Positions 3,395 through 45,130 of a DNA stretch of 45,130 nucleotides are shown here, piece by piece. Under the pieces are notes generated by a model. It saw nothing but the letters and a program-made list of their open reading frames with translations. It did not search any database and was not told the origin of the DNA. The position numbers and the translations under genes were made by a program. The stretch's first letter is position 1; every line of letters starts with the position of its first letter. The DNA is from Escherichia phage vB_EcoP_R4596, in sequence record MK373771.1; one strand, 5' to 3'.

Positions 3395-6022
3395 ATGCAA
3401 GATCTACACGCTATTCAGCTTCAGCTTGAGGAAGAAATGTTTAACGGCGGTATTCGTCGCTTTGAAGCAGACCAACAACGCCAGATTGCATCAGGTAATG
3501 AATCCGATACGGCATGGAATCGTCGCCTGTTGTCGGAGCTTATCGCACCTATGGCGGAAGGTATTCAGGCTTATAAGGAAGCCTACGAAGGCAAGAAAGG
3601 ACGCGCACCGCGTGCACTGGCCTTCATTAACTGCGTAGAGAACGAAGTGGCAGCATATATCACGATGAAGATCGTAATGGATATGCTTAACACAGATGTA
3701 ACCTTGCAAGCCATAGCAATGAATGTAGCTGATCGCATCGAAGATCAAGTACGCTTCAGCAAGCTGGAAGGCCACGCCGCCAAATACTTTGAAAAAGTTA
3801 AGAAGTCACTCAAGGCAAGTAAGACTAAATCATATCGCCATGCGCACAACGTAGCGGTAGTGGCTGAGAAGTCAGTAGCTGACCGTGACACTGATTTCTC
3901 CCGCTGGGAGGCGTGGCCTAAAGATACCTTACTGCAAATCGGTATGACCTTGCTAGAAATACTGGAGAATAGCGTATTCTTCAATGGTCAACCTGTCTTC
4001 CTCCGCACCTTGCGCACTAATGGTGGCAAGCATGGTGTTTACTACTTACAGACCAGTGAGCACGTAGGGGAGTGGATTACAGCATTTAAAGAACATGTAG
4101 CGCAACTTAGTCCGGCCTATGCACCTTGCGTCATTCCTCCGCGCCCTTGGGTGTCCCCTTTTAATGGTGGGTTTCATACTGAGAAGGTGGCAAGTCGCAT
4201 CCGTTTGGTAAAAGGCAACCGTGAGCACGTCCGTAAGCTGACCAAAAAGCAAATGCCAGCAGTTTATAAGGCTGTTAATGCTTTACAGGCCACTAAGTGG
4301 CAAGTTAACAAAGAAGTTTTGCAGGTAGTAGAAGACGTTATCCGTCTCGACCTTGGTTATGGTGTACCTTCCTTTAAACCACTCATCGACCGCGAGAACA
4401 AGCCGGCTAACCCAGTGCCGTTAGAATTTCAACACTTGCGAGGCCGCGAACTGAAGGAAATGTTAACGCCGGAACAATGGCAAGCCTTCATCAACTGGAA
4501 AGGTGAATGCACCAAGCTGTATACCGCTGAGACTAAGCGCGGAAGTAAGTCGGCGGCAACCGTTCGCATGGTAGGACAAGCGCGCAAATACAGCCAGTTT
4601 GATGCGATTTATTTCGTGTATGCACTGGATAGCCGCTCACGCGTTTATGCGCAATCTAGCACACTCTCACCGCAATCAAACGACCTAGGCAAGGCGTTAC
4701 TGCGTTTTACCGAAGGGCAGCCGCTAAATAGCTCTGAGGCGCTTAAATGGTTTTTGGTGAACGGGGCGAATAACTGGGGTTGGGATAAGAAGACTTTCGA
4801 CGTGCGCACCGCTAACGTACTGGACGGCGAGTTTCAAGATATGTGCCGCGACATTGCAGCGGATCCTCTGACCTTTACTCAATGGGTAAATGCCGATTCA
4901 CCTTATGGATTCCTTGCATGGTGCTTTGAGTATGCTCGTTATTTGGATGCACTGGATGAAGGAACACAAGATCAGTTTGTGACGCATTTACCTGTTCATC
5001 AAGATGGTAGCTGTTCTGGCATCCAGCACTACAGTGCTATGCTACGCGACGAAGTGGGTGCGAAGGCGGTAAACCTTAAACCATCCGACTCGCCTCAAGA
5101 TATTTATGGAGCGGTTGCGCAGGTTGTTATCCAGAAGAACTACGCCTACATGAATGCAGATGATACAGAAACTTTCACATCTGGAAGCGTAACACTTACA
5201 GGTGCAGAACTGCGTAGCATGGCTAGTGCATGGGATATGATAGGTATCACTCGCGGCTTAACCAAAAAGCCGGTAATGACCTTGCCTTACGGATCCACAC
5301 GCTTAACCTGCCGTGAGTCAGTGATTGATTATATCGTTGATTTGGAAGAAAAAGAGGCACAAAGGGCTATTGCAGAAGGGCGGACGGCTAATCCGGTGCA
5401 CCCTTTTGACAATGACCGGAAAGACTATTTAACACCGGGTGCAGCTTACAACTATATGACGGCGTTAATTTGGCCTTCTATCTCTGAGGTTGTTAAAGCC
5501 CCTATAGTGGCAATGAAAATGATTCGCCAGCTTGCACGTTTCGCAGCTAAAAGGGATGAAGGATTAGAATACACCTTGCCAACTGGCTTCATCCTGCAAC
5601 AAAAGATAATGGCTACCGATATGCTTCGTGTATCCACTTGCTTGATGGGTGAAATCAAGATGAGTCTACAAATTGAAACGGATGTAGTGGATGAAACGGC
5701 AATGATGGGCGCTGCCGCTCCTAACTTTGTTCACGGTCACGATGCTAGTCACCTTATATTAACGGTATGTGACCTAGTGGATAAAGGTATTACCTCCATT
5801 GCAGTTATCCATGACTCTTTCGGTACTCATGCAGGCCGCACCGCAGACCTGCGGGATAGCTTAAGGGCAGAAATGGTGAAGATGTATCAAGGCCGTAACG
5901 CTTTACAACAATTGCTTGATGAGCATGAAGAGCGTTGGCTAGTAGATACTGGCATCCAAGTGCCAGAGCAAGGGGAGTTTAACCTTGAAGAGATATTAGT
6001 TTCTGACTATTGCTTCGCATAA
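3395..6022 (+). CDS. Single-subunit DNA-dependent RNA polymerase (T7 gp1-like, 875 aa)
   Basis: Motifs [38 protein letters not shown] and C-terminal ...DYCFA match the T7/SP6 RNAP family; GGAG ribosome-binding site. Confidence 0.97.
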
Positions 6023-6030
6023 TATTGATA

Positions 6031-6060
6031 GGCCATTCCTTCGGGAGTGGCCTTTTCTTT
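6031..6060 (+). terminator. Stem-loop terminator after the RNAP gene
   Basis: GGCCATTCC-TTCG-GGAGTGGCC followed by TTTTCTTT. Confidence 0.55.
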
Positions 6061-6095
6061 ACCTATTACCTGTAACATTTCATTAACATAAACGT

Positions 6096-6111
6096 GTCTC
6101 ACATGTGAGAC
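6096..6111. repeat. 16-bp perfect palindrome GTCTCACATGTGAGAC (copy a)
   Basis: Read directly; immediately 5' of the promoter at 6113. Confidence 0.9.
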
Positions 6112-6112
6112 T

Positions 6113-6135
6113 TATTTACCGGACACTATAGGAGA
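6113..6135 (+). promoter_or_regulatory. Phage-RNAP promoter
   Basis: TTTACCGGACACTATAGGAGAG; matches the window consensus. Confidence 0.7.
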
Positions 6136-6278
6136 GCCGTCGGAGACGGGAAAGAGAAGGGAAGATAAAGGATATAAAGGAAGTAATAGGTATTAAAGGT
6201 TATATAGGTTTACCTAGGAATACCTATTACCTTCTTCCTTCCTCTTATTACCACTTAGAGGAAGGGCAGATCTAGGTT

Positions 6279-6294
6279 GTCTCACATGTGAGAC
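6279..6294. repeat. 16-bp perfect palindrome GTCTCACATGTGAGAC (copy b)
   Basis: Read directly; immediately 5' of the promoter-like sequence at 6299. Confidence 0.9.
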
Positions 6295-6298
6295 TTCG

Positions 6299-6321
6299 TA
6301 TTTACCGGACAGTATAGATAA
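6299..6321 (+). promoter_or_regulatory. Phage-RNAP promoter-like sequence (variant CAGTATAG)
   Basis: TATTTACCGGACAGTATAGATAAG; one substitution in the conserved CACTATAG core. Confidence 0.45.
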
Positions 6322-6347
6322 GACTAACTTACTTTGGAGATTTAACT

Positions 6348-6476
6348 ATGCGTAACCTAGAAAAGATTACCCGTAAAACTAAGCGTTTCGACATGGAAGA
6401 AGGGCAGACTAAAGGCAAGAAGCTGAATAAACCTGTCCGTGACCGTGCATCTAAACGCGCTGCGTGGGAGTTCTAA
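6348..6476 (+). CDS. Small basic protein (42 aa)
   Basis: GGAGA ribosome-binding site; Lys/Arg-rich translation MRNLEKITRKTKRF... Confidence 0.4.
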   Translation: MRNLEKITRKTKRFDMEEGQTKGKKLNKPVRDRASKRAAWEF

Positions 6477-6479
6477 GTT

Positions 6480-8468
6480 ATGGCTATTATTCAGAATGTA
6501 CCGTGTCCTGCCTGTCAAAAGAATGGACATGATATTACTGGCAACCATCTTATGATATTTGAGGATGGCGCTGGTTACTGTAATCGTGGTCACTTCCATG
6601 ATAACGGTAAGCCTTACTATCATAAGCCAGAGGGCGGCATCGAGATAACCGAATTGCCCATTACTGGCAATATCAAATACACACCTTCTCAATTCAAAGA
6701 AATGGAGAAGGAAGGGAAGATAAGCGACCCTAAGCTACGCGCCATCGCACTAGGTGGTATGCGTATGAAAGACCGTTGGGAGGTCATGAATGAGCAAGAA
6801 AGGGCAGAGCAAGAAGCAGAGTGGAAACTTGATGTTGAATGGTTCCTCACGCTTAAGCGTAAGAATCTTGTTTCCCGACACATTCGCGGCGACATTTGCG
6901 CATTGTATGATGTACGTGTCGGACATGATGAAGAGGGTAGAGTCTCACGGCATTACTATCCACGCTTCGAGAAAGGTGAACTAGTAGGCGCTAAGTGTCG
7001 CACATTACCTAAAGACTTTAAGTTTGGTCATTTAGGTAAACTATTTGGTATGCAAGATCTTTTCGGTATGAACACTTTGTCTCACGTGTTAGACAAGGGG
7101 AGACGAAAGGATTGCTTGCTTATTGTAGGCGGTGAACTTGATGCACTAGCAGCGCAGCAGATGCTCCTTGATTCTGCCAAAGGTACTAAGTGGGAAGGTC
7201 AGCCATACCATGTATGGTCTGTCAATAAAGGTGAGTCTTGCCTTGAAGAGATAGTGCAAAACCGTGAGCACATATCCCAATTCAAGAAGATTATATGGGG
7301 CTTTGATGGCGACGAGGTGGGGCAGAAGCAGAACCAACAAGCTGCTCGCCTGTTTCCTGGCAAATCCTACATCCTCGAATATCCATCTGGTTGCAAAGAT
7401 GCTAACAAGGCATTGATGGCTGGCAAGGCTAAAGAGTTTGTAGATGCATGGTTTAATGCCAAGTCATCTGATGAAGTCTTTGGTAGCCAGATTAAATCTA
7501 TCGCATCTCAAAGGGATAAGCTCAAGGCTGCACGTCCAGAACAAGGGCTGTCATGGCCTTGGCCTAAGCTAAACAAGGTAACGCTGGGTATCCGTAAGAA
7601 TCAGCTTATCATTGTAGGCGCAGGCTCTGGTGTGGGTAAGACTGAGTTCCTCCGTGAAGTAGTTAAGCATCTCATTGAAGAACACGGTGAATCTGTAGGC
7701 ATCATTTCTACAGAAGACCCGATGGTTAAGGTGTCCCGTGCTTTTATCGGTAAGTGGATTGATAAGCGTATTGAGCTACCGCCAACCAATGACCCGAAAG
7801 AAGATGGATACCGTGAGGTGTTCGACTATACCGAGGAAGAGGCTAACGCTGCCATTGACTATGTAGCTGATACAGGGAAGCTGTTTGTGGCTGACCTAGA
7901 GGGTGACTATTCAATGGAGAAGGTAGAGCAGACCTGCCTTGAGTTTGAGGCTATGGGTATTTCCAATATCATCATTGATAACTTAACGGGGATTAAATTA
8001 GATGAGCGTGCTTTTGGTGGGAAGGTTGGTGCACTTGATGAATGCGTCAAGCGGATTGGTACTATCAAAGACCGACACCCAGTTACTATATTCCTTGTAT
8101 CACACCTTACACGTCCTCCGGCAAACCGTACCCAACACGAAGAAGGTGGCGAAGTTATCCTTTCTGACTTCCGAGGCTCAGGAGCTATCGGATTCTGGGC
8201 ATCTTACGCCTTGGGCATCGAAAGGAACACGAGGGCAGAGACACTAGATGAGCGAACTACTACCTATATTTCCTGTGTTAAAGATAGGGATCAAGGGATT
8301 TACTCTGGTACTAAGATTATGCTTAAGGGTGACATCGCTACGGGCCGACTGCTAGAACCACAAGCCCGTACTAAGTCATTTGATACAGGTGAAGCAAGGC
8401 AACAAGAAGTACCTGATTTACCGGACACTATAGAAGAGACAACCTTTGACGATGAACAGGAGTTTTAA
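6480..8468 (+). CDS. DNA primase/helicase (T7 gp4-like, 662 aa)
   Basis: N-terminal Cys4 zinc motif CPACQ...CNRGH, Walker A GAGSGVGKTE, acidic C-terminal tail ending DDEQEF. Confidence 0.93.
   Translation: MAIIQNVPCPACQKNGHDITGNHLMIFEDGAGYCNRGHFHDNGKPYYHKPEGGIEITELPITGNIKYTPSQFKEMEKEGKISDPKLRAIALGGMRMKDRWEVMNEQERAEQEAEWKLDVEWFLTLKRKNLVSRHIRGDICALYDVRVGHDEEGRVSRHYYPRFEKGELVGAKCRTLPKDFKFGHLGKLFGMQDLFGMNTLSHVLDKGRRKDCLLIVGGELDALAAQQMLLDSAKGTKWEGQPYHVWSVNKGESCLEEIVQNREHISQFKKIIWGFDGDEVGQKQNQQAARLFPGKSYILEYPSGCKDANKALMAGKAKEFVDAWFNAKSSDEVFGSQIKSIASQRDKLKAARPEQGLSWPWPKLNKVTLGIRKNQLIIVGAGSGVGKTEFLREVVKHLIEEHGESVGIISTEDPMVKVSRAFIGKWIDKRIELPPTNDPKEDGYREVFDYTEEEANAAIDYVADTGKLFVADLEGDYSMEKVEQTCLEFEAMGISNIIIDNLTGIKLDERAFGGKVGALDECVKRIGTIKDRHPVTIFLVSHLTRPPANRTQHEEGGEVILSDFRGSGAIGFWASYALGIERNTRAETLDERTTTYISCVKDRDQGIYSGTKIMLKGDIATGRLLEPQARTKSFDTGEARQQEVPDLPDTIEETTFDDEQEF
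8415..8438 (+). promoter_or_regulatory. Phage-RNAP promoter inside the 3' end of the primase/helicase gene
   Basis: GATTTACCGGACACTATAGAAGAG. Confidence 0.65.
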
Positions 8469-8629
8469 TGGAAATTATTAAACCAGTATTGAATATCGGT
8501 ATTGAGATCCTATTCATGCTTGTGATCGCAGATTATGCTGCACGATATGGATTCAAGAAAGCTGTGAAACTTATCGTTGCATCTGGTTTTCTTATGTCAA
8601 TGTTCTTTATTGTAACACGTCTTATCTAG
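8468..8629 (+). CDS. Small hydrophobic membrane protein (53 aa)
   Basis: ATG overlaps the primase stop (TAATG); translation MEIIKPVLNIGIEILFMLVIADYAA... is hydrophobic. Confidence 0.4.
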   Translation: MEIIKPVLNIGIEILFMLVIADYAARYGFKKAVKLIVASGFLMSMFFIVTRLI

Positions 8630-8646
8630 TGTATTTATCAGGGCTT

Positions 8647-8662
8647 GTCTCACATGTGAGAC
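8647..8662. repeat. 16-bp perfect palindrome GTCTCACATGTGAGAC (copy c)
   Basis: Read directly; flanks extend the potential stem to about 12 bp. Confidence 0.9.
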
Positions 8663-8701
8663 AGGCTCTTATTAAGTACATTAAATAACTGGAGATTGAT
8701 T

Positions 8702-9424
8702 ATGTATAAATTAGTATTGAATGCAGGTGATTATGTTCGTAACATCAATGAAGCCTCACGTCGTTATCGTTGCCGTGGTGTGGTTAGCTATGTAAGTGAG
8801 AACATGTACCATGTGGAGTACAGCAACGGCATTAAACAATCTTATCATAAGAAGTTAGCACATAACTACCTTGAGAAGATTGGCGAGACAAGCAATCAAT
8901 GCAAGTGTGTACATGATGAGGTTTGCGATAAGTGCAAACGTCAGGCAATTAAAGCCTTTACCTTTGCGCAACGTTATGGTTCTATGTATGGTGCTGGTCA
9001 CAAGACCGTTGCAGAAGCAGCTTGGAAGACATTACAGTTTGAGCATTCAAATGGACGACGCACCACAATTAAGAAAGAGCGCCGCAATGTCATCACTGGT
9101 AAGACTCAAAGTGAGATGATTAAGCAATGTGGCACTGCATTAGGTGTTACACAGTTCAATACACGTGCTCTAGGTAAATCTACAGGACAAGCTATGTTTA
9201 AGATTGGTGAAGCCATGATGCATCCAAATGTACCTGTGCGAATCATGGATGTTGACCATGCAATCACAGAGCACGGCACACCACGACGTGTAGTTAATAA
9301 GCATTTTGCAGACACTATAGAAGGTATTATCCTTAAGCAAGGTTTAAAGGGTCTTCATATCTTAAACGGTGAAGAGTTGCTGTACCTCCCTATTGTTACT
9401 GAAGAAACCTACGTGAATATCTAA
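8702..9424 (+). CDS. Hypothetical protein with Cys cluster CKCVHDEVCDKCK (241 aa)
   Basis: GGAGA Shine-Dalgarno 6 nt before ATG 8702; no family recognized. Confidence 0.6.
   Translation: MYKLVLNAGDYVRNINEASRRYRCRGVVSYVSENMYHVEYSNGIKQSYHKKLAHNYLEKIGETSNQCKCVHDEVCDKCKRQAIKAFTFAQRYGSMYGAGHKTVAEAAWKTLQFEHSNGRRTTIKKERRNVITGKTQSEMIKQCGTALGVTQFNTRALGKSTGQAMFKIGEAMMHPNVPVRIMDVDHAITEHGTPRRVVNKHFADTIEGIILKQGLKGLHILNGEELLYLPIVTEETYVNI
9303..9326 (+). promoter_or_regulatory. Candidate intragenic phage-RNAP promoter
   Basis: ATTTTGCAGACACTATAGAAGG; the 14-nt core GACACTATAGAAGG is identical to the consensus. Confidence 0.4.
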
Positions 9425-9653: not shown

Positions 9654-9840
9654 ACACAGCCTTAAGATGTTTGATGGTCATGAAGACCTGCAAGCACAAA
9701 TTACTAACCAAGCCTTCCTGTTTGCACAGTTAACTATGGCTGAAGCAAAGAAGAACAGCCTTACTCGTGAGCAGATTATCAAGGAAGGTAGCCGTGGTGT
9801 TACTCGTCGTACCAAGAACCACAGAAGTGGTGCTCGCTAG
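9643..9840 (+). CDS. Hypothetical protein (65 aa)
   Basis: ORF overlapping the upstream gene end; weak ribosome-binding site. Confidence 0.35.
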   Translation: MQNKHSLKMFDGHEDLQAQITNQAFLFAQLTMAEAKKNSLTREQIIKEGSRGVTRRTKNHRSGAR

Positions 9841-9857
9841 TCGATAAGTCAAGGGTT

Positions 9858-9873
9858 GTCTCACGTGTGAGAC
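9858..9873. repeat. Palindrome variant GTCTCACGTGTGAGAC (copy d, 15/16)
   Basis: One substitution in the central tetranucleotide; flanks AAGGG...CCTTT can extend the stem. Confidence 0.85.
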
Positions 9874-9998
9874 AGCCTTTCATCATATTGATTGGAGGTG
9901 CATTATGCCACGTGATTATGATTCTGATTGGGACTACTATGACTCAATGAATCCAAAACCCGAACGTTCAGATGATTACTACGAAACAGAGGCAATGT

Positions 9999-16555: not shown

Positions 16556-17555
16556 ACTTCGTAGCCTTTATAAAGACTCCGAGGTGCTTGATGCAATCGA
16601 GCAAGCTACCGACGAGAAAGGTAATGTTAACTATAATGAGATGGCGAAGGTTCTATCTAGCCACCCTGTGGGTAAGAAGATCACCCGTCAACTTGCTCGC
16701 TACTGGCATGGTCAATTCAAGAAGACCAAGAAGAATGGTGATTATTACCAGACTCTTCTGCAAGAGGATAAGCGTATCAAAGAAGAGCGTAAGCTCAGGA
16801 CTCCTGACCGCTACGAGGATTTGGCTATTGTACCATTGCCTGACTCGCCTCATCGAAGTGTACTGGTAATCCCTGATACTCATGCACCTTATGAGCACCC
16901 AGATACCTTAGAGTTCCTTGCAGCAGTGGCAGCACGTTATCGACCAGACACAGTGGTACATCTTGGAGATGAGGCAGATAAACATGCCCTGTCATTCCAT
17001 GATTCGGATCCAAATTTGGACAGTGCTGGCATGGAGTTAGAGAAGGCTCGTGTCTTCATGCACAAGTTGCACAAGATGTTCCCTGTGATGCGCCTGTGTC
17101 ATTCTAACCATGGCTCTATGCACTTCCGTAAGGCAAGCGCCAAGGGTATTCCAGTACAATATCTGCGTACCTACCGTGAAGTCTTCTTCCCGCAGGGAGG
17201 TGGCGACCAGTGGGACTGGCAGCATACGCATGTACTTGAGTTACCGAATGGCGAACAGGTGGCGTTCAAGCATCAACCTGCCGGCTCTGTCCTAGCAGAT
17301 GCAGCGCATGAGCGTATGAACCTTGTGTGTGGTCATCTGCATGGCAAGATGTCTGTGGAGTATGCACGTAATACCCATGAGCAGTATTGGGCTGTGCAGG
17401 GTGGCTGTCTAATTGATGAGTCATCTCGTGCATTTGCCTATGGTCGAGAGTCTAAGTACAAGCCAGCATTAGGTTGTGTGGTTATTCTGGATGGTGTGCC
17501 GCACATTGTCCCGATGCAGACCAATAGTGACAATCGCTGGATTGGTAAGATTTAG
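16548..17555 (+). CDS. Calcineurin-like metallophosphoesterase with about 100-aa N-terminal extension
   Basis: Motifs VIPDTHAP, HLGDEADK, HSNHG, CGHLHG; likely GTG 16548 start with AAGGAGG Shine-Dalgarno 7 nt upstream (track begins at 16518). Confidence 0.75.
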   Translation: MAKLRSLYKDSEVLDAIEQATDEKGNVNYNEMAKVLSSHPVGKKITRQLARYWHGQFKKTKKNGDYYQTLLQEDKRIKEERKLRTPDRYEDLAIVPLPDSPHRSVLVIPDTHAPYEHPDTLEFLAAVAARYRPDTVVHLGDEADKHALSFHDSDPNLDSAGMELEKARVFMHKLHKMFPVMRLCHSNHGSMHFRKASAKGIPVQYLRTYREVFFPQGGGDQWDWQHTHVLELPNGEQVAFKHQPAGSVLADAAHERMNLVCGHLHGKMSVEYARNTHEQYWAVQGGCLIDESSRAFAYGRESKYKPALGCVVILDGVPHIVPMQTNSDNRWIGKI

Positions 17556-17572
17556 TTGACACTATAGAACAA
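17550..17572 (+). promoter_or_regulatory. Phage-RNAP promoter, closest copy to the SP6 consensus
   Basis: ATTTAGTTGACACTATAGAACAAAGG. Confidence 0.7.
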
Positions 17573-17622
17573 AGGGTAGGTATTAGCTTGCCCTTGATTG
17601 TATAGTGAATGGAGGAATTAAT

Positions 17623-18060
17623 ATGTCACACTATGAATGTAATAAATGCCATAATCGCTATGATGATTGCACTTGTGATGCGCATAAAGATGAGAGTATT
17701 AAGCCAGAGCATCACCCTTTATGTGATTACATGTTGTCTAACTGTGTAGAGAAATGTGACTGTAAAACAGAGTGGTTTAAAGAAAGAATGGCTAAAATGG
17801 ATAAGAAGGAAGAAAAAACCAGTAATGATATGGTCACTAAACCCAAGCACTACGAGTTCTTCGATGGCGTAGAGGCAATTACTATCATCGCCCGTAGTAT
17901 GACCGAGAAGCAATTCGCGGGGTATTGCATGGGTAATGCTTTGAAGTATCGTCTGCGTGCAGGTAAGAAGTTCAATACTGAAGAAGACCTGAAGAAAGCA
18001 GACTACTACAAAGAGTTATTCCAGAAGCATCGTCACGAATGTATTGATGAGGATATTTGA
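17623..18060 (+). CDS. Cys/His-rich protein with DUF3310-like C-terminal domain
   Basis: N-terminus CNKCHNRYDDCTCDAH...CDYMLSNCVEKCDCK; C-terminal KPKHYEFFDGVEAITIIARSM...GNALKYRLRAGKK...DLKKADYY resembles DUF3310 as recalled; GGAGGA ribosome-binding site before ATG 17623. Confidence 0.5.
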   Translation: MSHYECNKCHNRYDDCTCDAHKDESIKPEHHPLCDYMLSNCVEKCDCKTEWFKERMAKMDKKEEKTSNDMVTKPKHYEFFDGVEAITIIARSMTEKQFAGYCMGNALKYRLRAGKKFNTEEDLKKADYYKELFQKHRHECIDEDI

Positions 18061-19796: not shown

Positions 19797-20006
19797 ATGG
19801 GTGTCGTGAAGAAGGCATTTAAAGCAATTGGTCTTGCACCTGAGACGCCGAAAATTGAGGCGGCTAAGACTCCGGCACAACAGTTAGCGCGTGAACCGGA
19901 GACTACGGCAGAGGATATTACATTAGGCCAAGATGATAGCGCAACGGCTGCGGCACGTGGTAAGCGTGGACTGATTCGTCCAGTGGCATCGAGCTTAGGG
20001 GTTTAA
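19797..20006 (+). CDS. Small virion-associated protein, possibly gp6.7-like (69 aa)
   Basis: AAGGAGG Shine-Dalgarno; located just before the portal gene; composition loosely like T7 gp6.7. Confidence 0.45.
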   Translation: MGVVKKAFKAIGLAPETPKIEAAKTPAQQLAREPETTAEDITLGQDDSATAAARGKRGLIRPVASSLGV

Positions 20007-20205
20007 TATGATGCAAGACACCGACCTTGAGTATGGTCTCCGGCACAACAGTTAGCGCGTGAACCGGAGACTACGGCAGAGGATATTACATTAGGCCAAG
20101 ATGATAGCGCAACGGCTGCGGCACGTGGTAAGCGTGGACTGATTCGTCCAGTGGCATCGAGCTTAGGGGTTTAATATGATGCAAGACACCGACCTTGAGT
20201 ATGGT
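19870..20205. repeat. Perfect tandem duplication, 2 x 168 bp (19870-20037 and 20038-20205)
   Basis: Direct reading; the unit spans the 3' end of the 69-aa gene and the first 10 codons of the portal gene. Confidence 0.95.
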
Positions 20206-21726
20206 GGAAAGCGGTCGAAGATACCTAAGTTGTGGGAGAAGCTATCTACTAAGCGCAATCCTTTCATGGACAGGGCAAAGCACTATGCGAGGTTGACTTT
20301 GCCATACCTCATGAATGAAGAGGGAGACAACAATACTTCTCAGAATGGGTGGCAAGGTGTAGGTGCGCAGGCCACTAACCACTTAGCTAACAAGTTAGCA
20401 CAAGTTCTCTTCCCTGCTCAACGCTCTTTCTTCCGAGTTGACTTGACGGCAAAAGGGGAGAAGATATTAAACAATAGAGGTCTTAAGAAGACCAAATTAG
20501 CTACGCTGTTTGCTCAAGTAGAGACTGCTGCTATGAAGCAACTAGAGCAGCGGCAGTTCCGCCCAGCGGTGGTGGAGTGCTTCAAGCATTTGATTGTTGC
20601 AGGTAACTGTATGCTATACAAGCCAAGCAAGGGTGCAATCAGTGCTATACCTATGCATCACTATGTAGTTAATCGAGATGCTAATGGGGAACTGCTGGAT
20701 ATTATCTTACTACAAGAGAAGGCGCTAAAGACATTCGACCCTGCAACTCGCATGGCTATTGAAGTAGGCATGAAAGGTAAGAAGTGCAAAGACAGTGATA
20801 ATGTAAAACTCTACACACACGCCAAGTATGAGGGTGAAGGTTTTTGGGAATTAAATCAATCAGCAGATGATATTCCTATTGGTAAATCTAGCAGAATCAA
20901 GGCTGATAAACTCCCATTCATCCCCCTTACTTGGAAGAGGTCGTATGGTGAAGATTGGGGTCGCCCTCTTGCAGAGGATTATTCTGGAGATTTATTCGTA
21001 ATCCAATTCCTGTCTGAAGCGGTTGCGCGTGGCGCTGCTTTGATGGCAGACATTAAATACCTGATTCGTCCAGGTGCTCAGACAGATGTAGACCACTTTG
21101 TTAACTCAGGAACAGGCGAAGTAATCACTGGTGTGGAAGAGGACATCCATATCGTACAACTAGGCAAGTATGCAGACCTAACACCAATAAGTGCTGTACT
21201 AGAGGTTTATACCAGACGCATCGGCGTAGTCTTTATGATGGAGACTATGACACGACGAGATGCAGAACGTGTAACTGCTGTAGAGATACAGCGAGATGCT
21301 CTTGAGATTGAGCAGAACATGGGTGGCGTATACTCACTCTTTGCTACGACTATGCAGACACCCGTGGCTATGTGGGGTTTGCTTGATGCCGGAGACTCTT
21401 TCACCAGTGACCTAGTAGATCCTGTTATCATCACAGGTATTGAAGCATTAGGTCGCATGGCAGAGTTGGATAAGCTGGCTAACTTCGCTCAGTATATGGC
21501 ATTACCTATGAGTTGGCCTGAGCCAGTACAGGCAGCAGTGAACTGGCCTGATTATATGGATTGGGTTCGTGGTCAGATCTCCGCTGAACTTCCATTCCTA
21601 AAATCAGAAGAGCAGATGAAGAAAGAGCAAGCACAGATGGCACAAGCACAGCAAGAGCAGATGCTTAATGAAGGAGTAGCTAAAGCTGTACCTGGTGTCA
21701 TTCAACAAGAACTTAAGGAGGCGTAA
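20176..21726 (+). CDS. Portal (head-tail connector) protein (T7 gp8-like)
   Basis: WQGVGAQATNHLANKLAQVLFP matches T7 gp8 WQAVGARGLNNLASKLMLALFP as recalled; expected size and position. Confidence 0.9.
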   Translation: MMQDTDLEYGGKRSKIPKLWEKLSTKRNPFMDRAKHYARLTLPYLMNEEGDNNTSQNGWQGVGAQATNHLANKLAQVLFPAQRSFFRVDLTAKGEKILNNRGLKKTKLATLFAQVETAAMKQLEQRQFRPAVVECFKHLIVAGNCMLYKPSKGAISAIPMHHYVVNRDANGELLDIILLQEKALKTFDPATRMAIEVGMKGKKCKDSDNVKLYTHAKYEGEGFWELNQSADDIPIGKSSRIKADKLPFIPLTWKRSYGEDWGRPLAEDYSGDLFVIQFLSEAVARGAALMADIKYLIRPGAQTDVDHFVNSGTGEVITGVEEDIHIVQLGKYADLTPISAVLEVYTRRIGVVFMMETMTRRDAERVTAVEIQRDALEIEQNMGGVYSLFATTMQTPVAMWGLLDAGDSFTSDLVDPVIITGIEALGRMAELDKLANFAQYMALPMSWPEPVQAAVNWPDYMDWVRGQISAELPFLKSEEQMKKEQAQMAQAQQEQMLNEGVAKAVPGVIQQELKEA

Positions 21727-27844: not shown

Positions 27845-30787
27845 ATGGCAATTGAACGTCAAGCTGTACAAGGACTAGAAAGAGTACAGTCAAGGGGCGC
27901 GCCAACACCTATGTCTTTCACACCACGACAAGTGAGTATCTCAGGGGGCGCGGATGCCTCCGGTAGTAGATTTTTGGAAGACTTAGTAAACGCTGCAAGT
28001 AGTGTGGCTGATGTCACTACTGCTATCCTTAATCAGCAAGTAGAAGACGATAAGGTTCGCCAGATGGATAGGGCTTTGTCTGGCATGATGCCTTCTGAGG
28101 ATGCTACGGTAGGTGGTGCTCGTGCGCATATGCTGGTTAGTTTACAAAATGATGTAATCGCACAGACAACTGCGCTACAAGTAGAAGCACAGCGATTTCA
28201 AGGTAGTGACGAGGATTGGGAAAACTATGTAGTTCAATCTCGTAATGAGGTACAAAATAGGTTATGGCAAAGTTATCCAGAGCTTCGTGGTGACAAAGAT
28301 TCTATGAGACTTGTCACTAACGCGTTCATGGAGCAGCAACCTAGAATTACTGCAACTAGAGCAGAGGCTAAACTTCGTCAAGAAGAAGAAGCACGAATGC
28401 AATCTATGCAGTCTCGTATTATCATGGCTACACGGGACGTAGCGCCAGATGCCACTGGTGCAGCACTCATCCAGTTACAAAAAGAAGCACTGGCGATGGG
28501 TCTTAGTAAACCTGAGTTTGATCAGATGGTTGCTAAGATTGCATCTGACAGAGCGGCAGTAGGAGATGATAGTCTTATTCAGGGAACCAAAGCACTGGTG
28601 GATGATAAGGGTGTCTCTTTGTATGACCGTGTTGGTGCTTTGCAAACTGGAGAGATTCAAGCTAACAGAGCTTGGGCTGCGCAGAATCAGGTTGCCCTCT
28701 TTGAGAAGAAGGATGCAGCTATAAAGGCATTCGATGCAGGGCAACTTACTCGTGAAGAGTTACTTCAGGTGATGCAGAATCACAATGAATTGACTGGTGG
28801 TACTGCTTGGTCTGATAGCGAGATCAAGGCTATCTTCGATAGGCAAGCTAAGGCTAATGCAGAGAAAGCAAAGCTCGAAGATCTTATTGCACGAGGTGAA
28901 TCTGGGTCGCCTTTAGGTTTACAGGATATTAGTAAGGATGACAGAAAATCCTATGCTGAAGCCTTAGTTAGTACCTACACTAAGTTGGCAGAAGATGAAA
29001 TTGCCCGTACTGGTGCAACGGGAGAACAGGCTGAAGCTATTCGCGGTAGGTATGAGCAGATGCGTTATCTTAAATTAGGGCAACAACTTATTGAAGACCC
29101 AATCATTAAGGAAAGATATTCGTCGCTTATGCAATTATCCTCTGCCAACCTTAAAGATATGAATGTTGAGCCTGAAGCATTACAGACCATCATGCGAGCG
29201 CGGGACTCTATTCCAGAGGATGCACGTCGTGCTGTCATGGGAGACAAAGAGTATGCCTTTGTAGAGAACTACGACCTAGCAACTCGCATGGGGTATAACG
29301 CAGGTCAAGCTATTGAGTTTGCACAGAATGCCTCTCGTGGAGAGAAGCTACAAGGTTCTGTACTTAAAGAACTGAATGATGATGTAGATGGAGTTGTAAG
29401 TGATGTGGCAGGAGGTAGTTGGCTTACTCGTGGCGATAATATGAGTGAGATGGGTCGTGACATTATGATGGAGGAGGCAAGTACAATTGCGAGAGCAATG
29501 AAGGTTGCAGGTCATAATAATGACACGATTAAACGTCATCTTAAATCCTATTTGACGAGCCAGTATACACAGTTATCAGAGGGCTTCTTCACCCAAGGTG
29601 TTCTGGTGAAAGGTGATGTACGAACATTAGGTGACACTATAGGAGTAAACCAGAATGACCTTCCTATGGCGCTACGTCAATATATGGATAACAACAAGCA
29701 AGCACTTCTTGATGCATCAGGTGGCTTAGAAGAGGGTGATTTGTATTTTGATGTAGATGCGCAGCGGGGACTCTTTACCATACGTGCAGGGTCTGGTCGT
29801 GTACCTGTTACGCAGGCAATGCCTTTGTCTGAAATCAAAGGGCAGTCCTTGCTTAAGCAAAGATATGATGCAGAGGTTAAAGCCCGTGATGAGGGGCGTA
29901 AGAATTTTGAAGCACAGCAAATGAGGATGTGGGGCGCAGGTGGCTACCAAGCACAACCACCTGCAAAGACTACAGCCAAAACTGTAGGCTCCCGTGGGAT
30001 TGCTGACTTCTTAATGTCACCTGCCTTTGCATCAGGCGAGAATCTACCAGCAAACTTTGAGTTTGGATATAAGAGGAATAATATGGACTTCTACAATTAT
30101 GTAGCCAAGATGGAGAATAATGCCAATGTGGGCTTTGACCGAGTAGCTGGTGTTTATACACCATACAAAGATGCACATGGTCAATCTGTCGGGTACGGTC
30201 ACTTCCTTACTACTGAAGAGAAGAAGAACGGATACATTATGATTGGTACAGAGAAAGTGCCATTCACTCCGGGACAATCTCAATTAACACCAGAACGAGC
30301 CATGCGCCTTCTACAGCAAGACTTGAAGAGTCATGTGCCAAACACTTCAGGGTGGGCTGTTCCATTCGAAGAGATGCACCCAGGTGTTCAGCGTGGCCTT
30401 ATGGACTTGTCCTATAATTTAGGCAAAGGAGGTATCCAGAATGCACCTAAAGCCTATGCTGCGTTTAAGGCTGGCAAGTTTACTGATGGATTTATTGAGA
30501 TGTTATCTACTGCATCTACTGAAGGTAAGCGTAGTACTGGGTTGTTGGTTCGTAGGGCAGAAGCATACAACCTTGCACAGAGTGGAGGTGCTATTCCTAA
30601 GATTAGTGAAGTAGAGACACGAGCCGATGGGTCTATGTATGTTAAGTTTGCAGGACAGATGTCAGAGGCTTTCGTAAATAAATCAATCTACAATCAGATT
30701 GGTAAGGATGGATGGCTGCAAGTGTACCCTCCAAAACAAGGTGTACTTGCACCTAACACCAAGATTGGTAGAATCAAACTAAGCTAG
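27845..30787 (+). CDS. Internal virion protein with C-terminal lysozyme-like (GH24) domain
   Basis: Position; C-terminal MENNANVGFDRVAGVYTPYKDAHGQSVGYGHFLT...GVQRGLMDLSYNLGKGG resembles the T4-lysozyme Glu/Asp/Thr core as recalled. Confidence 0.75.
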   Translation: MAIERQAVQGLERVQSRGAPTPMSFTPRQVSISGGADASGSRFLEDLVNAASSVADVTTAILNQQVEDDKVRQMDRALSGMMPSEDATVGGARAHMLVSLQNDVIAQTTALQVEAQRFQGSDEDWENYVVQSRNEVQNRLWQSYPELRGDKDSMRLVTNAFMEQQPRITATRAEAKLRQEEEARMQSMQSRIIMATRDVAPDATGAALIQLQKEALAMGLSKPEFDQMVAKIASDRAAVGDDSLIQGTKALVDDKGVSLYDRVGALQTGEIQANRAWAAQNQVALFEKKDAAIKAFDAGQLTREELLQVMQNHNELTGGTAWSDSEIKAIFDRQAKANAEKAKLEDLIARGESGSPLGLQDISKDDRKSYAEALVSTYTKLAEDEIARTGATGEQAEAIRGRYEQMRYLKLGQQLIEDPIIKERYSSLMQLSSANLKDMNVEPEALQTIMRARDSIPEDARRAVMGDKEYAFVENYDLATRMGYNAGQAIEFAQNASRGEKLQGSVLKELNDDVDGVVSDVAGGSWLTRGDNMSEMGRDIMMEEASTIARAMKVAGHNNDTIKRHLKSYLTSQYTQLSEGFFTQGVLVKGDVRTLGDTIGVNQNDLPMALRQYMDNNKQALLDASGGLEEGDLYFDVDAQRGLFTIRAGSGRVPVTQAMPLSEIKGQSLLKQRYDAEVKARDEGRKNFEAQQMRMWGAGGYQAQPPAKTTAKTVGSRGIADFLMSPAFASGENLPANFEFGYKRNNMDFYNYVAKMENNANVGFDRVAGVYTPYKDAHGQSVGYGHFLTTEEKKNGYIMIGTEKVPFTPGQSQLTPERAMRLLQQDLKSHVPNTSGWAVPFEEMHPGVQRGLMDLSYNLGKGGIQNAPKAYAAFKAGKFTDGFIEMLSTASTEGKRSTGLLVRRAEAYNLAQSGGAIPKISEVETRADGSMYVKFAGQMSEAFVNKSIYNQIGKDGWLQVYPPKQGVLAPNTKIGRIKLS
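29624..29646 (+). promoter_or_regulatory. Candidate intragenic phage-RNAP promoter
   Basis: CATTAGGTGACACTATAGGAG matches the SP6-type core TTAGGTGACACTATAG. Confidence 0.4.
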
Positions 30788-30804
30788 TGGTATACTCAAG
30801 GTTT

Positions 30805-30820
30805 GTCTCACATGTGAGAC
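30805..30820. repeat. 16-bp perfect palindrome GTCTCACATGTGAGAC (copy f)
   Basis: Read directly; between two internal virion protein genes; flanks AAGG...CCTT and a following TTTATGAAT shared with the hairpin at 12648. Confidence 0.9.
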
Positions 30821-30854
30821 ATGCCTTTATGAATGACACTGACTAGGAGGTAAC

Positions 30855-33800
30855 ATGGTTGATAGTATTAACCAAAACTGGGTGGCGGTGACTCAACGCA
30901 AGTTACCGCCTACCTTCTCTCAAATTGCTGAAGCTGAGCGTAAGGCTGAAGCCCAGAGAGCTAATGATAAAGTGTTTCAAACAGCATTAGAAAGTGAGTG
31001 GGCTTTATATGGCGGACAACGTGCCTATGAACGCCACACTACAGAGTTTGCTGAACAAGAAGGCTATGAAGTGCCTGAGTCAACTAAGGATGAGTTATCC
31101 AAGTTGTATGGGTATGAAATAGCGCAAGACATAGTTAAGAATGTAAAGTCTCCAGAAGAGTTGCAATTCCGTATGTCTAATGCTGCTGCTGATAAAGACA
31201 GAGCAGACATCTTAGCACGTAATGGTTTCACGGGTTTCAGCGCGCAGATTGCTGCTGGCATCCTTGACCCTGTAGGTTGGGCTGCATCCTTAGTGGCTGC
31301 GCCTGTAGCGGGTGCTGTCAAAGTAGGTAGGCTAGGTAGGATTATCAAGACGGCTGCCTTATCAGGTGCTGAAAATGCTGCATTAGAAGCTATACTTGCA
31401 CAAGGTGATTACCAGCGAGGGGTTGATGATGTACTGGCTGCTGCCGGATTTGGTATGATTATGGGCGGCACTATTGGTGCTGCAACCAGAGAGCGCATAG
31501 CCAGTGCTGGTTCTCGTACAGCGGCAGAACGAGCAGATGCTGTAGTTGATGACTTGGACACTGTAGTAAAAGGTGCTGATGAATTTGACTCGTCTGCGGC
31601 TCGTGCTGTACGTGAAGCTATGGAATATGACGCGTATATGGCAGCGCGTAATTACGAACCACTTCGTGCAAGAGAGGTAGATGCAGACATGGCGATTCTG
31701 TCTCACACAGACAATTTGAAAGCCAATGCATCGGTAAGGATGAGTGCTAGTGAGAAAGGGCAACTGAAGAAGCAGATACGTCAGCTTGAAGCAGAAGCAG
31801 CAACACTTAAAGGGAAGAAGATAGACACTGTAGCGGAAGCTGCGGCTGCTAAGGGTGCACCTAAATCTGCTGCTGACAGATTAGATTTGGATGTTCAGAA
31901 GAAAGCATTAGCACGTAGATTTGATGAACCACTGGCAGACTTACAAGCGCGTCTTGATGAGTTGAATGCTAAATTGTCTCGTGTAAACAATGTAGGCAAA
32001 GCCAAGGAAGAGCTTAAGAGATTCTCATCGCTATCTCGTGAAGAGCAAATAAAGGAGTTAGGTCTAGACGCACCAGTGCGCAAGGTAGAGATGACCCGTG
32101 CCGTGCGAGATGCAATTGACGCAATCCGTGCCGAGCGTAAGAAGACGCCTACCGAAATACATGCTGAACAAGTCGCAGAAGATGCAATTAAGCAAAGGGC
32201 AGACGACTCTGTTGGTGCTAAACGTGTTGAAGGTTCAGAGATTGCAGGTGAACAGTTTGACCTATCTAAAAACATGGAAGAACTTATGGATGACTTGGCA
32301 CGAGAAGCATACCAGTCAGAGGTGCGGCCTATTAATCTTAAGGGTTTAGGTTCAGTGTCTTCTGTGATTCTTAACTCAGAGAATCCTGTGTTCCGAGGCC
32401 TAGGTCTTCGTCTGCTTGAAAATGCTCAAGGTGGTGCATATCAAGGTAAGACAGCTTCTATCTTATCAGATGTGTATGGCAACCTTATTCGTCATGCAGA
32501 ACGTAACAGATACAATGATGGCTTCTCTCAGTTCATCAAAGATAATAACCTACGTGCGGTAGATTATCTTAACCCTGCAACGACAAGGGATTTCAATAAT
32601 CAGATTTATACAGCAATTGTTCGTGGCATACCAGAAGATACACCTCGTGGTGTTAAACTGGCAGCCGAAGGTATTGCAGATAAGCTCAAGAAAGCACTGG
32701 AGATTCGTAAGCAAGCAGGTGAGCGAGGCTTCGAGGATGTGCAATCTGCTAAAGATTATATTCCCGTTATCTACGATGGTATCAAGATCACAGAGGCAGT
32801 TAACAAGTTAGGTAGTAGTGAAGCTGTCATTCACTTGCTATCTAAAGGGTATCAGACAGGCAAGTACAAACTTGGCAAGAAAGCTGCTGATGCACTAGCC
32901 AAAGTTCAGTATATTCGCGCATCTGACTCCACCCTCTCTAGTCGTGTTGCATTCGATAGAGTAGTATCCCAGCAGCAGCAGGCTCAATTGATTGAGGATC
33001 TGAAGAGAGCAGGAGTACCAGACCATATCATTGATAATTTCATTGAAGGTACGGAATTAGCAGAAATGGCTGAATCGGTATCCAATCGAGCTAAAGCTAG
33101 CATGGGTATTAATACGCAAGCCGAATATGGCGGTTTGAAGGTGCAGGATTTGCTTAATACAAACGTAGGCGAGCTAGCTGAGAACTACGGCAAAGAGGCA
33201 GCAGGCGGTGCTGCATTAGCTGCCATGGGTTTCCCCACTCGCCAGTCTGTGCTGAATGCGATAGATGCCGCAGAACGCGCAGGTCGTAATATGGCGGGGT
33301 CAAATGCTAAGGCAATCAAACAGCTTAGAGCTGAGGCAGAAATGCTCAGAGATGCCGTTAAGCTCATTTACGGCAACACTATTGACGCCGACCCTAACTC
33401 TGGAATTGTCAGAGGCACTCGACGTGTCCGTGAGATTACAGGCTTGTTACGATTGGGTCAAATGGGCTTCGCTCAGATACCAGAACTGGCACGTGCAATC
33501 TCTAAGATGGGATTAGGTACTGTGCTGAAGTCCATACCTGCCACGAAGTTCTTACGTTCAAGGGCGGCTCGTAAGGGAGGAACAGCTCAAGGTGAATTAC
33601 TTGAACCTGAACTGCGAGAAATGGAGGAACTCTTAGGCTATATCGGGGAAGATAACTGGCTTACAGGGTGGAACGTCCGTCATGATGAGTTCGGAGAAAC
33701 TGCTGATAACCTAGGTAAGCTGTCTGCTATTATTGATAACGGATTAGCTATGGGTAGTAGAATCAACACAATACTCTCTGGATTTAAAGCAGTACAAGGT

Positions 33801-44398: not shown

Positions 44399-44422
44399 GC
44401 AGTGCGCAAGCACTGCTTTTCT
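44399..44422 (+). terminator. Rho-independent-type terminator after the tailspike
   Basis: GCAGTGC-GCAA-GCACTGC then TTTTCTC. Confidence 0.65.
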
Positions 44423-44489
44423 CGCAACTTCCCTTGAAGCAATCTAGCGATACCTTCAAGGGAATAGCTCAAGAAAGCAAGGAGGTTTG

Positions 44490-44639
44490 ATGCCGTTGAT
44501 CAAATCAGTTAAGCAATCTGCTGTACGCCAGAACACAGAAGAACTTATTCAATCAGGGCGTGACCCTAAGCAGGCTTATGCCATTGCCAAGGATGTACAA
44601 CGTCGTGCCATGAAGAAACCTTCTGCATCTTCTGCGTAA
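44490..44639 (+). CDS. Small basic protein (49 aa)
   Basis: Strong AAGGAGG ribosome-binding site; below the ORF-track length cutoff. Confidence 0.4.
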   Translation: MPLIKSVKQSAVRQNTEELIQSGRDPKQAYAIAKDVQRRAMKKPSASSA

Positions 44640-44845: not shown

Positions 44846-45130
44846 TCTCGCCCTCGCCCTCGCCGGGTTGTCCCCATAGGGTAGCCTGAGGGAATCCGTC
44901 TCCGACGGGCAGGGCTGATGTACTCTTTGTACTAGCTTAGTAGTACACAAGGGCTGGCCTTTTGTTTTGCCGTGTACTAGTAAGGTGGAACGCTGTAGAC
45001 GGCCTAGGACGGCCTAGGGAATGGCTTAGTGGCGGACAAGGTGATTGCCTTAGTGAAGCCTCTTAGCGCATTCCTGAGGCCATTCAGGGCGTTTATGAGG
45101 TATTGACAGGGTGTGCGTGGGTGTGGGCTA
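44846..45130. repeat. Right direct terminal repeat (identical to 1-285)
   Basis: Direct reading; truncated by the window end. Confidence 0.9.

Follow-up and report, generated by a model that had tools for sequence, protein, structure and literature searches.

The question raised by the start of the portal gene of Escherichia phage vB_EcoP_R4596 is whether a 168-bp sequence that stands there twice in immediate succession belongs to the phage or to the making of the sequence record. The window analysed (the whole stretch of DNA, MK373771, 45,130 bp) is the complete genome of the phage, an SP6/K1-5-like podophage with the gene order of Vectrevirus (Molineuxvirinae), and the phage promoter ATTTACTGGACACTATAGAAG occurs in it in about 10–11 copies. 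The preliminary description of this sequence had reported a perfect tandem duplication, to be read either as a very recent and tolerated event or as an assembly artefact, and had made no choice between the two. Only these two readings outlasted testing, and the artefact is now the one that we consider probable. The features of the locus are the following.

19797–20006, + strand: 69-aa gene, intact; its PHROG is annotated 'host range and adsorption protein' and is of the T7 gp7.3 type (phrog_1320, E = 7e-10; phrog_9033, E = 2e-13).
19870–20037, + strand: copy 1 of the 168-bp unit, comprising the 3′-terminal 137 nt of the 69-aa gene, then the RBS of the portal and its first 10 codons; identical to copy 2.
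20008–20055, + strand: decoy portal start in copy 1, opening a 15-codon ORF (MMQDTDLEYGLRHNS, then stop) that crosses the junction into an out-of-frame stop.
20037–20038, no strand: novel junction, ...GAGTATGGT / CTCCGGCAC..., blunt, with 0-bp microhomology.
20038–20205, + strand: copy 2 of the 168-bp unit, with the working portal RBS and start and, at 20038–20174, what is left of the 69-aa gene, an orphan 3′ fragment lacking a start.
20176–21726, + strand: portal (head-to-tail connector) gene, intact, 516 aa (PF12236, E = 1.3e-91; phrog_449, E = 2e-187).

The 168-bp repeat is present in the deposited MK373771 sequence. By direct comparison, positions 19870–20037 and 20038–20205 were identical base for base over 168 nt, as had been described, and TRF returned a period of 168, 2.0 copies, a 100 % match and a score of 672. 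The identity stops exactly at both edges of the repeat and extends not one base further, the flanks being ...GCTAAGA/CTCCGG on the left, ...GTATGGT/CTCCGG at the junction and ...GTATGGT/GGAAAG on the right, so that both boundaries are blunt, with 0-bp microhomology. The junction 29-mer GACCTTGAGTATGGTCTCCGGCACAACAG occurs once in the window and was not found in 100 shuffles. An exact repeat of 168 nt cannot be attained by chance.

The gene content attributed to the two copies was also borne out. Copy 1 completes the 69-aa gene and carries a portal start at 20008 that runs for 15 codons before a stop, while the start at 20176, in copy 2, opens the 516-aa portal, whose match to PF12236 reaches 307.9 bits (cut-off 27) over profile positions 1–486 of 489. 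The essential genes stay whole despite the repeat; the upstream gene is complete by virtue of copy 1, and the portal start is supplied by copy 2. What the duplication removes is TAATATG, in which the stop of the 69-aa gene and the portal start adjoin.

Considering all the relatives examined, the duplication is unique to the R4596 record. The comparison set comprised about 20 GenBank relatives, three metagenome or SRA assemblies and 28 IMG/VR loci. In every one of the 11 GenBank records at 85–99 % identity there is one copy, a 1301-nt query spanning 1133 nt (= 1301 − 168), and in these single-copy relatives the stop of the 69-aa gene abuts the portal start (TAATATG). A single copy is likewise present in three independent assemblies (one ENA metagenome scaffold and two Logan SRA assemblies) that encode identical 69-aa and/or portal proteins, the 69-aa protein being identical in the two Logan assemblies. 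As the three are only 93–99 % identical to R4596 at the DNA level, they are relatives of the phage and not re-assemblies of it. The 28 IMG/VR loci (490 kb) are single copy throughout and contain zero tandem repeats of period at least 30, and an end-to-end scan of 15 complete relatives gave no credible long tandem duplication.

The junction sequence had no match in IMG/VR, in JGI metagenome contigs or in GTDB genomes, an absence that shows uniqueness and does not separate an artefact from a private mutation. Exact-protein look-ups found the R4596 DNA polymerase and gp16-like proteins on no other contig of the collections, which therefore hold no independent assembly of the isolate. Klebsiella phage vB_Ka_Sem4 (PV775411.1, 22317–23809), where the portal is given as two CDSs, was considered as a second case and rejected: the split is near the 3′ end (a frameshift or a sequencing error) and the 5′ end is single copy.

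Concerning a possible function of the unit, neither a phage promoter (the closest ones being at 17550 and 22641), nor a terminator, nor an Rfam family was found in its 168 bp, and a sigma-70 promoter search gave only a weak 9/12 match, doubled by construction. The predicted accessibility of the working portal RBS was essentially unchanged, at 0.39–0.51 in the single-copy context versus 0.39–0.42 in the duplicated one, so masking or unmasking of the RBS is unconvincing as a driver. In the predicted folding, the left breakpoint adjoins modest hairpins (6th percentile of genomic 60-mers) and the right breakpoint is unremarkable; hairpin-driven template switching is thus unconvincing too, since the right breakpoint is without a hairpin driver. 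No plausible selective benefit of the 168-bp duplication emerged from the examination of promoters, terminators, Rfam elements and RBS accessibility. Because the unit holds no promoter, terminator or Rfam element and leaves RBS accessibility unchanged, there is nothing in it for selection to act on.

The way in which the record was made has to be considered next to the locus itself. At its ends, the window carries direct terminal repeats (DTRs).

1–285, + strand: left direct terminal repeat, identical to 44846–45130.
44846–45130, + strand: right direct terminal repeat, identical to 1–285.

The occurrence of both DTR copies shows that the sequence was cut at the physical ends of the genome and that the second DTR copy was added. 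The source of the phage is the work of Korf et al. (2019, Viruses 11:454), in which assembly was performed by PacBio HGAP3 or by SPAdes 3.12 with the 'careful option (55kmer)', one contig per phage was obtained, each contig 'was linearized' at abrupt read ends, and coverage was checked in IGV/SMRT View. From the description of each contig as 'linearized', it follows that contigs were cut and re-arranged by hand. The locus tags of R4596 read 'R4596rev_...', and this 'rev' implies that the contig was reverse-complemented. Taken together, the linearization, the 'R4596rev' tags and the two DTR copies indicate that the raw contig was cut and put together anew before it was deposited. The length of 168 bp is neither 55 (the SPAdes k of the laboratory) nor 127, and it is compatible with HGAP3 or with a manual overlap of arbitrary length.

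Table S4 of the same paper lists, for R4596, a length of 45,130 bp, a coverage of 953x and a terminal repeat measuring 428 bp, a value found in its text as well. The sequence has a repeat of 285 bp, and no extended or imperfect repeat accounting for 428 bp was found in the window. For the sibling podophage vB_EcoP_KAW1A4500 the two sources agree (266 bp in the paper, 267 bp in the sequence), and in P3a, the closest relative of R4596, the terminal repeat is annotated as 283 bp. Given this discrepancy between paper and sequence for R4596, while the KAW1A4500 values agree, the finishing of R4596 can be said to be internally inconsistent. A redundancy of the T7/SP6 type, either DTR or packaging, was rejected as an origin of the 168-bp unit, which is located mid-genome and has no similarity to the 285-bp DTR.

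Some other features of these genomes were recorded. Just inside the left DTR, at 335–449, there is a degenerate tandem array of 12/24 nt (CCTTAGTGATTA-like, about five copies), with equivalent arrays in P3a, CC1, UKE2 and LL11; such a short-repeat region is typical of T7-like genome ends. An element of about 67 nt occurs three times, at 8621–8687, 9832–9898 and 30779–30845, with the common palindromic core TGTCTCAC(A/G)TGTGAGACA. These elements are intergenic, the fold predicted for each is a long hairpin with two tiers (dG −20 to −30 kcal/mol, z = −3 to −8), and they may be akin to T7-type RNase III processing sites. A sharp mosaic boundary is located at 17540–17700, where the nucleotide-kinase gene begins: up to its ATG the window hardly differs from P3a, CC1 and G3A1, and directly after it the CDS is a different allele. 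The sole candidate for a 1-bp consensus indel, sought as a clue to the sequencing platform, is at about 17623, in the RBS spacer at this mosaic boundary, and causes no frameshift. In KAW1A4500 (MK373773.1), the RNA polymerase is annotated with 'frameshift' in two CDSs (3903–6528) and the primase/helicase is in three pieces (6996–8927); these split essential genes are probably consensus errors.

Precedents for overlap artefacts were found very close to R4596. The complete relatives were scanned for exact tandem duplications and for terminal overlaps, with three matches. MZ234019 (vB_EcoP-101117UKE2) contains an exact, blunt, 55-bp tandem duplication at 6391 (6391–6500) that frameshifts and truncates a gene. 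MZ234020 (vB_EcoP-101118B1) contains another, also exact, blunt and of 55 bp, at 30940 (30940–31050), which frameshifts the essential gp16, annotated there as two overlapping CDSs (28494–31004 and 30943–32352). Their sibling MZ234032 (G3A1) is free of both duplications, with an intact gp16 and a genome shorter by exactly 55 bp. As 55 nt frameshifts genes, including the essential gp16, and equals the SPAdes k, both repeats can only be artefacts, left when an untrimmed contig was re-oriented. UKE2 and B1 come from the Leibniz Institute DSMZ, where they were isolated and also sequenced, with the MiSeq plus SPAdes protocol of the R4596 paper; the re-orientation mechanism is thereby demonstrated in the laboratory and in the phage group from which R4596 itself comes.

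The third match, OX457022.1 (vB_EcoP-CC1), has an exact 127-bp repeat at both ends (1–127 and 44406–44532) of a sequence opened in the exonuclease region. This repeat is the untrimmed SPAdes k = 127 overlap of a raw contig and not a DTR. Among the 15 complete relatives, the local base rate is then two proven internal overlap artefacts, one more untrimmed terminal overlap and no credible real long tandem duplication.

The resemblance of these cases to R4596 is close in some respects and limited in others. Like that of R4596, the 55-bp repeats of UKE2 and B1 are exact, blunt and two-copy, each is confined to one record and missing from near-identical siblings, and the phages are of one clade (about 97 % identity), from the DSMZ, with genomes re-oriented by hand. 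The difference is that the UKE2 and B1 repeats have a length equal to k, lie inside genes and frameshift them, and so cannot be real, while the R4596 repeat is not of a k value, is located at a gene boundary and is not self-refuting. The overlap of CC1 corresponds to the precursor state of the artefact proposed for R4596, i.e., a contig that was opened at an arbitrary gene and whose two ends repeat each other exactly; unlike R4596, CC1 was not re-oriented, its overlap is still terminal, and 127 bp is the maximum k of SPAdes. Outside this clade, internal repeats of about 79 bp in short-read assemblies of T7-like przondoviruses were artefacts according to Sanger sequencing, and read depth did not support them (PMC10438801). 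These are, as in R4596, internal repeats in T7-like podophages with DTRs; they are shorter and near or within the DTR region, whereas the R4596 repeat is mid-genome.

We judge it probable that the second 168-bp copy comes from the finishing and not from biology, as a contig overlap that stayed untrimmed when the sequence was manually cut and pasted. In such a case, the collapsed DTR would have made the assembler output a circular-looking contig, opened at an arbitrary point within the 69-aa gene/portal region and with ends overlapping by 168 bp. The authors would then have cut this contig where the genome physically ends, turned it to the reverse complement and joined the two pieces with the overlap still in place; where the contig ends used to be, a tandem repeat of two copies, perfect and blunt, would result. 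Perfect identity, exactly two copies and lack of microhomology give the R4596 repeat the look of a pasted overlap, and the 20037/20038 junction is probably the point where the original contig ends were pasted. The artefact is favoured because the repeat is unique to one record, is blunt and has no regulatory content, because manual re-joining is documented, and because overlap artefacts come from the same institute. From the observed repeat and its uniqueness, the manual linearisation and those artefacts, we infer that the R4596 copy arose by pasting. Most likely, the phage itself has one copy and TAATATG, like every relative, and its genome measures 44,962 bp with the two DTRs counted.

Some observations go against this reading and in favour of a tandem duplication that truly took place, very recently, in the R4596 lineage, by illegitimate (non-homologous) recombination or template switch over the boundary of the 69-aa and portal genes, which we regard as unlikely, though as a serious contender. 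Such a duplication would be tolerated, with copy 1 preserving the upstream gene and copy 2 the portal start, and with the 15-codon decoy ORF and the loss of TAATATG coupling as by-products. The length of the unit is one such observation: 168 is not an assembler k value, and the Illumina route of the laboratory (k = 55) would leave 55 bp, as it did in MZ234019 and MZ234020. As 168 is not a de Bruijn k, the artefact requires either the HGAP3 route or an ad hoc join, and the assembler behind the overlap was plausibly PacBio HGAP3, with its end overlaps of arbitrary length. Long reads, if used, can also assemble a genuine 168-bp tandem duplication correctly, and the paper reports the 953x coverage and the coverage check in IGV/SMRT View. 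The location is another: on the genes of the artefact-free sibling as mapped, only 26 % of the possible positions would keep a randomly placed 168-bp duplication from falling entirely within a CDS, so both genes would remain intact in just this fraction of random placements. Since harmless placement has this chance and both proven artefacts are in coding sequence, a likelihood ratio of about 3–4 is obtained toward a real viable event.

There are also real duplications among phages to compare with. The evolved T7:LME_2000, a T7-like podophage with a deliberately rearranged genome of low fitness, fixed a real 154-bp tandem duplication of promoter phi13 over about 2000 generations (PMC3737178), which is of a size similar to that of R4596 and stands in the consensus sequence. 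Duplications reach consensus in other phages as well, such as the tail-fibre duplications of EfV12-phi1, selected by host resistance. The comparison with T7:LME_2000 is nevertheless limited, as the T7 duplication carries a promoter and arose under long selection, while the R4596 unit has no regulatory element and was found in a fresh environmental isolate. Against a genuine event, the R4596 repeat also has neither a gain in RBS accessibility nor a hairpin driver at the right breakpoint. Illegitimate duplications and deletions in T7, by slippage or annealing, usually use short direct repeats, and R4596 has 0-bp microhomology at both boundaries, although this is not an absolute requirement and blunt joins occur. 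In a recombination-proficient T7-like phage, a perfect direct repeat of 168 bp is expected to be lost fast by homologous recombination unless selected. The event would have to be extremely recent, given the zero divergence between copies, and none of about 45 relatives or contigs has the R4596 duplication or any other non-artefactual long tandem duplication.

A join of different templates was also weighed, in which two contigs from a mixed lysate, two runs or a chimeric assembly, overlapping by 168 bp, would have been concatenated instead of merged; together with other join errors, this is very improbable. It would give the same perfect blunt repeat as the pasting of the two ends of one contig, and in coarse BLAST comparisons the identity to individual relatives does differ between the blocks to the left and to the right of the repeat. 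On a fine scale, however, the identity to P3a is 99–100 % and unbroken from 19.5 to 21.5 kb, the mismatches to all relatives are evenly spread on both sides, and each phage gave a single contig according to the paper. Since the similarity profiles show no switch at the repeat, a chimeric origin from two genomes was excluded.

If the second copy is an untrimmed overlap, as we think probable, MK373771 is 168 bp too long, which can distort gene calls, synteny plots and comparisons of genome length or ANI. The analysis has a value for curation in that it exposes overlap artefacts in MZ234019, in MZ234020, where gp16 is falsely split, and in OX457022; MZ234019 and MZ234020 appear to need correction. 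For the phage itself, the biological significance of the repeat is small, and there is no new biology in it. That a real duplication was captured only a few generations after it arose, as a snapshot of a compact T7-like genome creating intergenic space, is doubtful, a shade more so than a genuine duplication as such. Were it real, the portal would be released from translational coupling with the gp7.3-like gene, and the 15-codon upstream ORF might tune portal dosage. R4596 would then offer, among natural podophages, a modest case of a tandem duplication that is neutral and very young, with a bearing mainly on the rates and mechanisms of illegitimate recombination.
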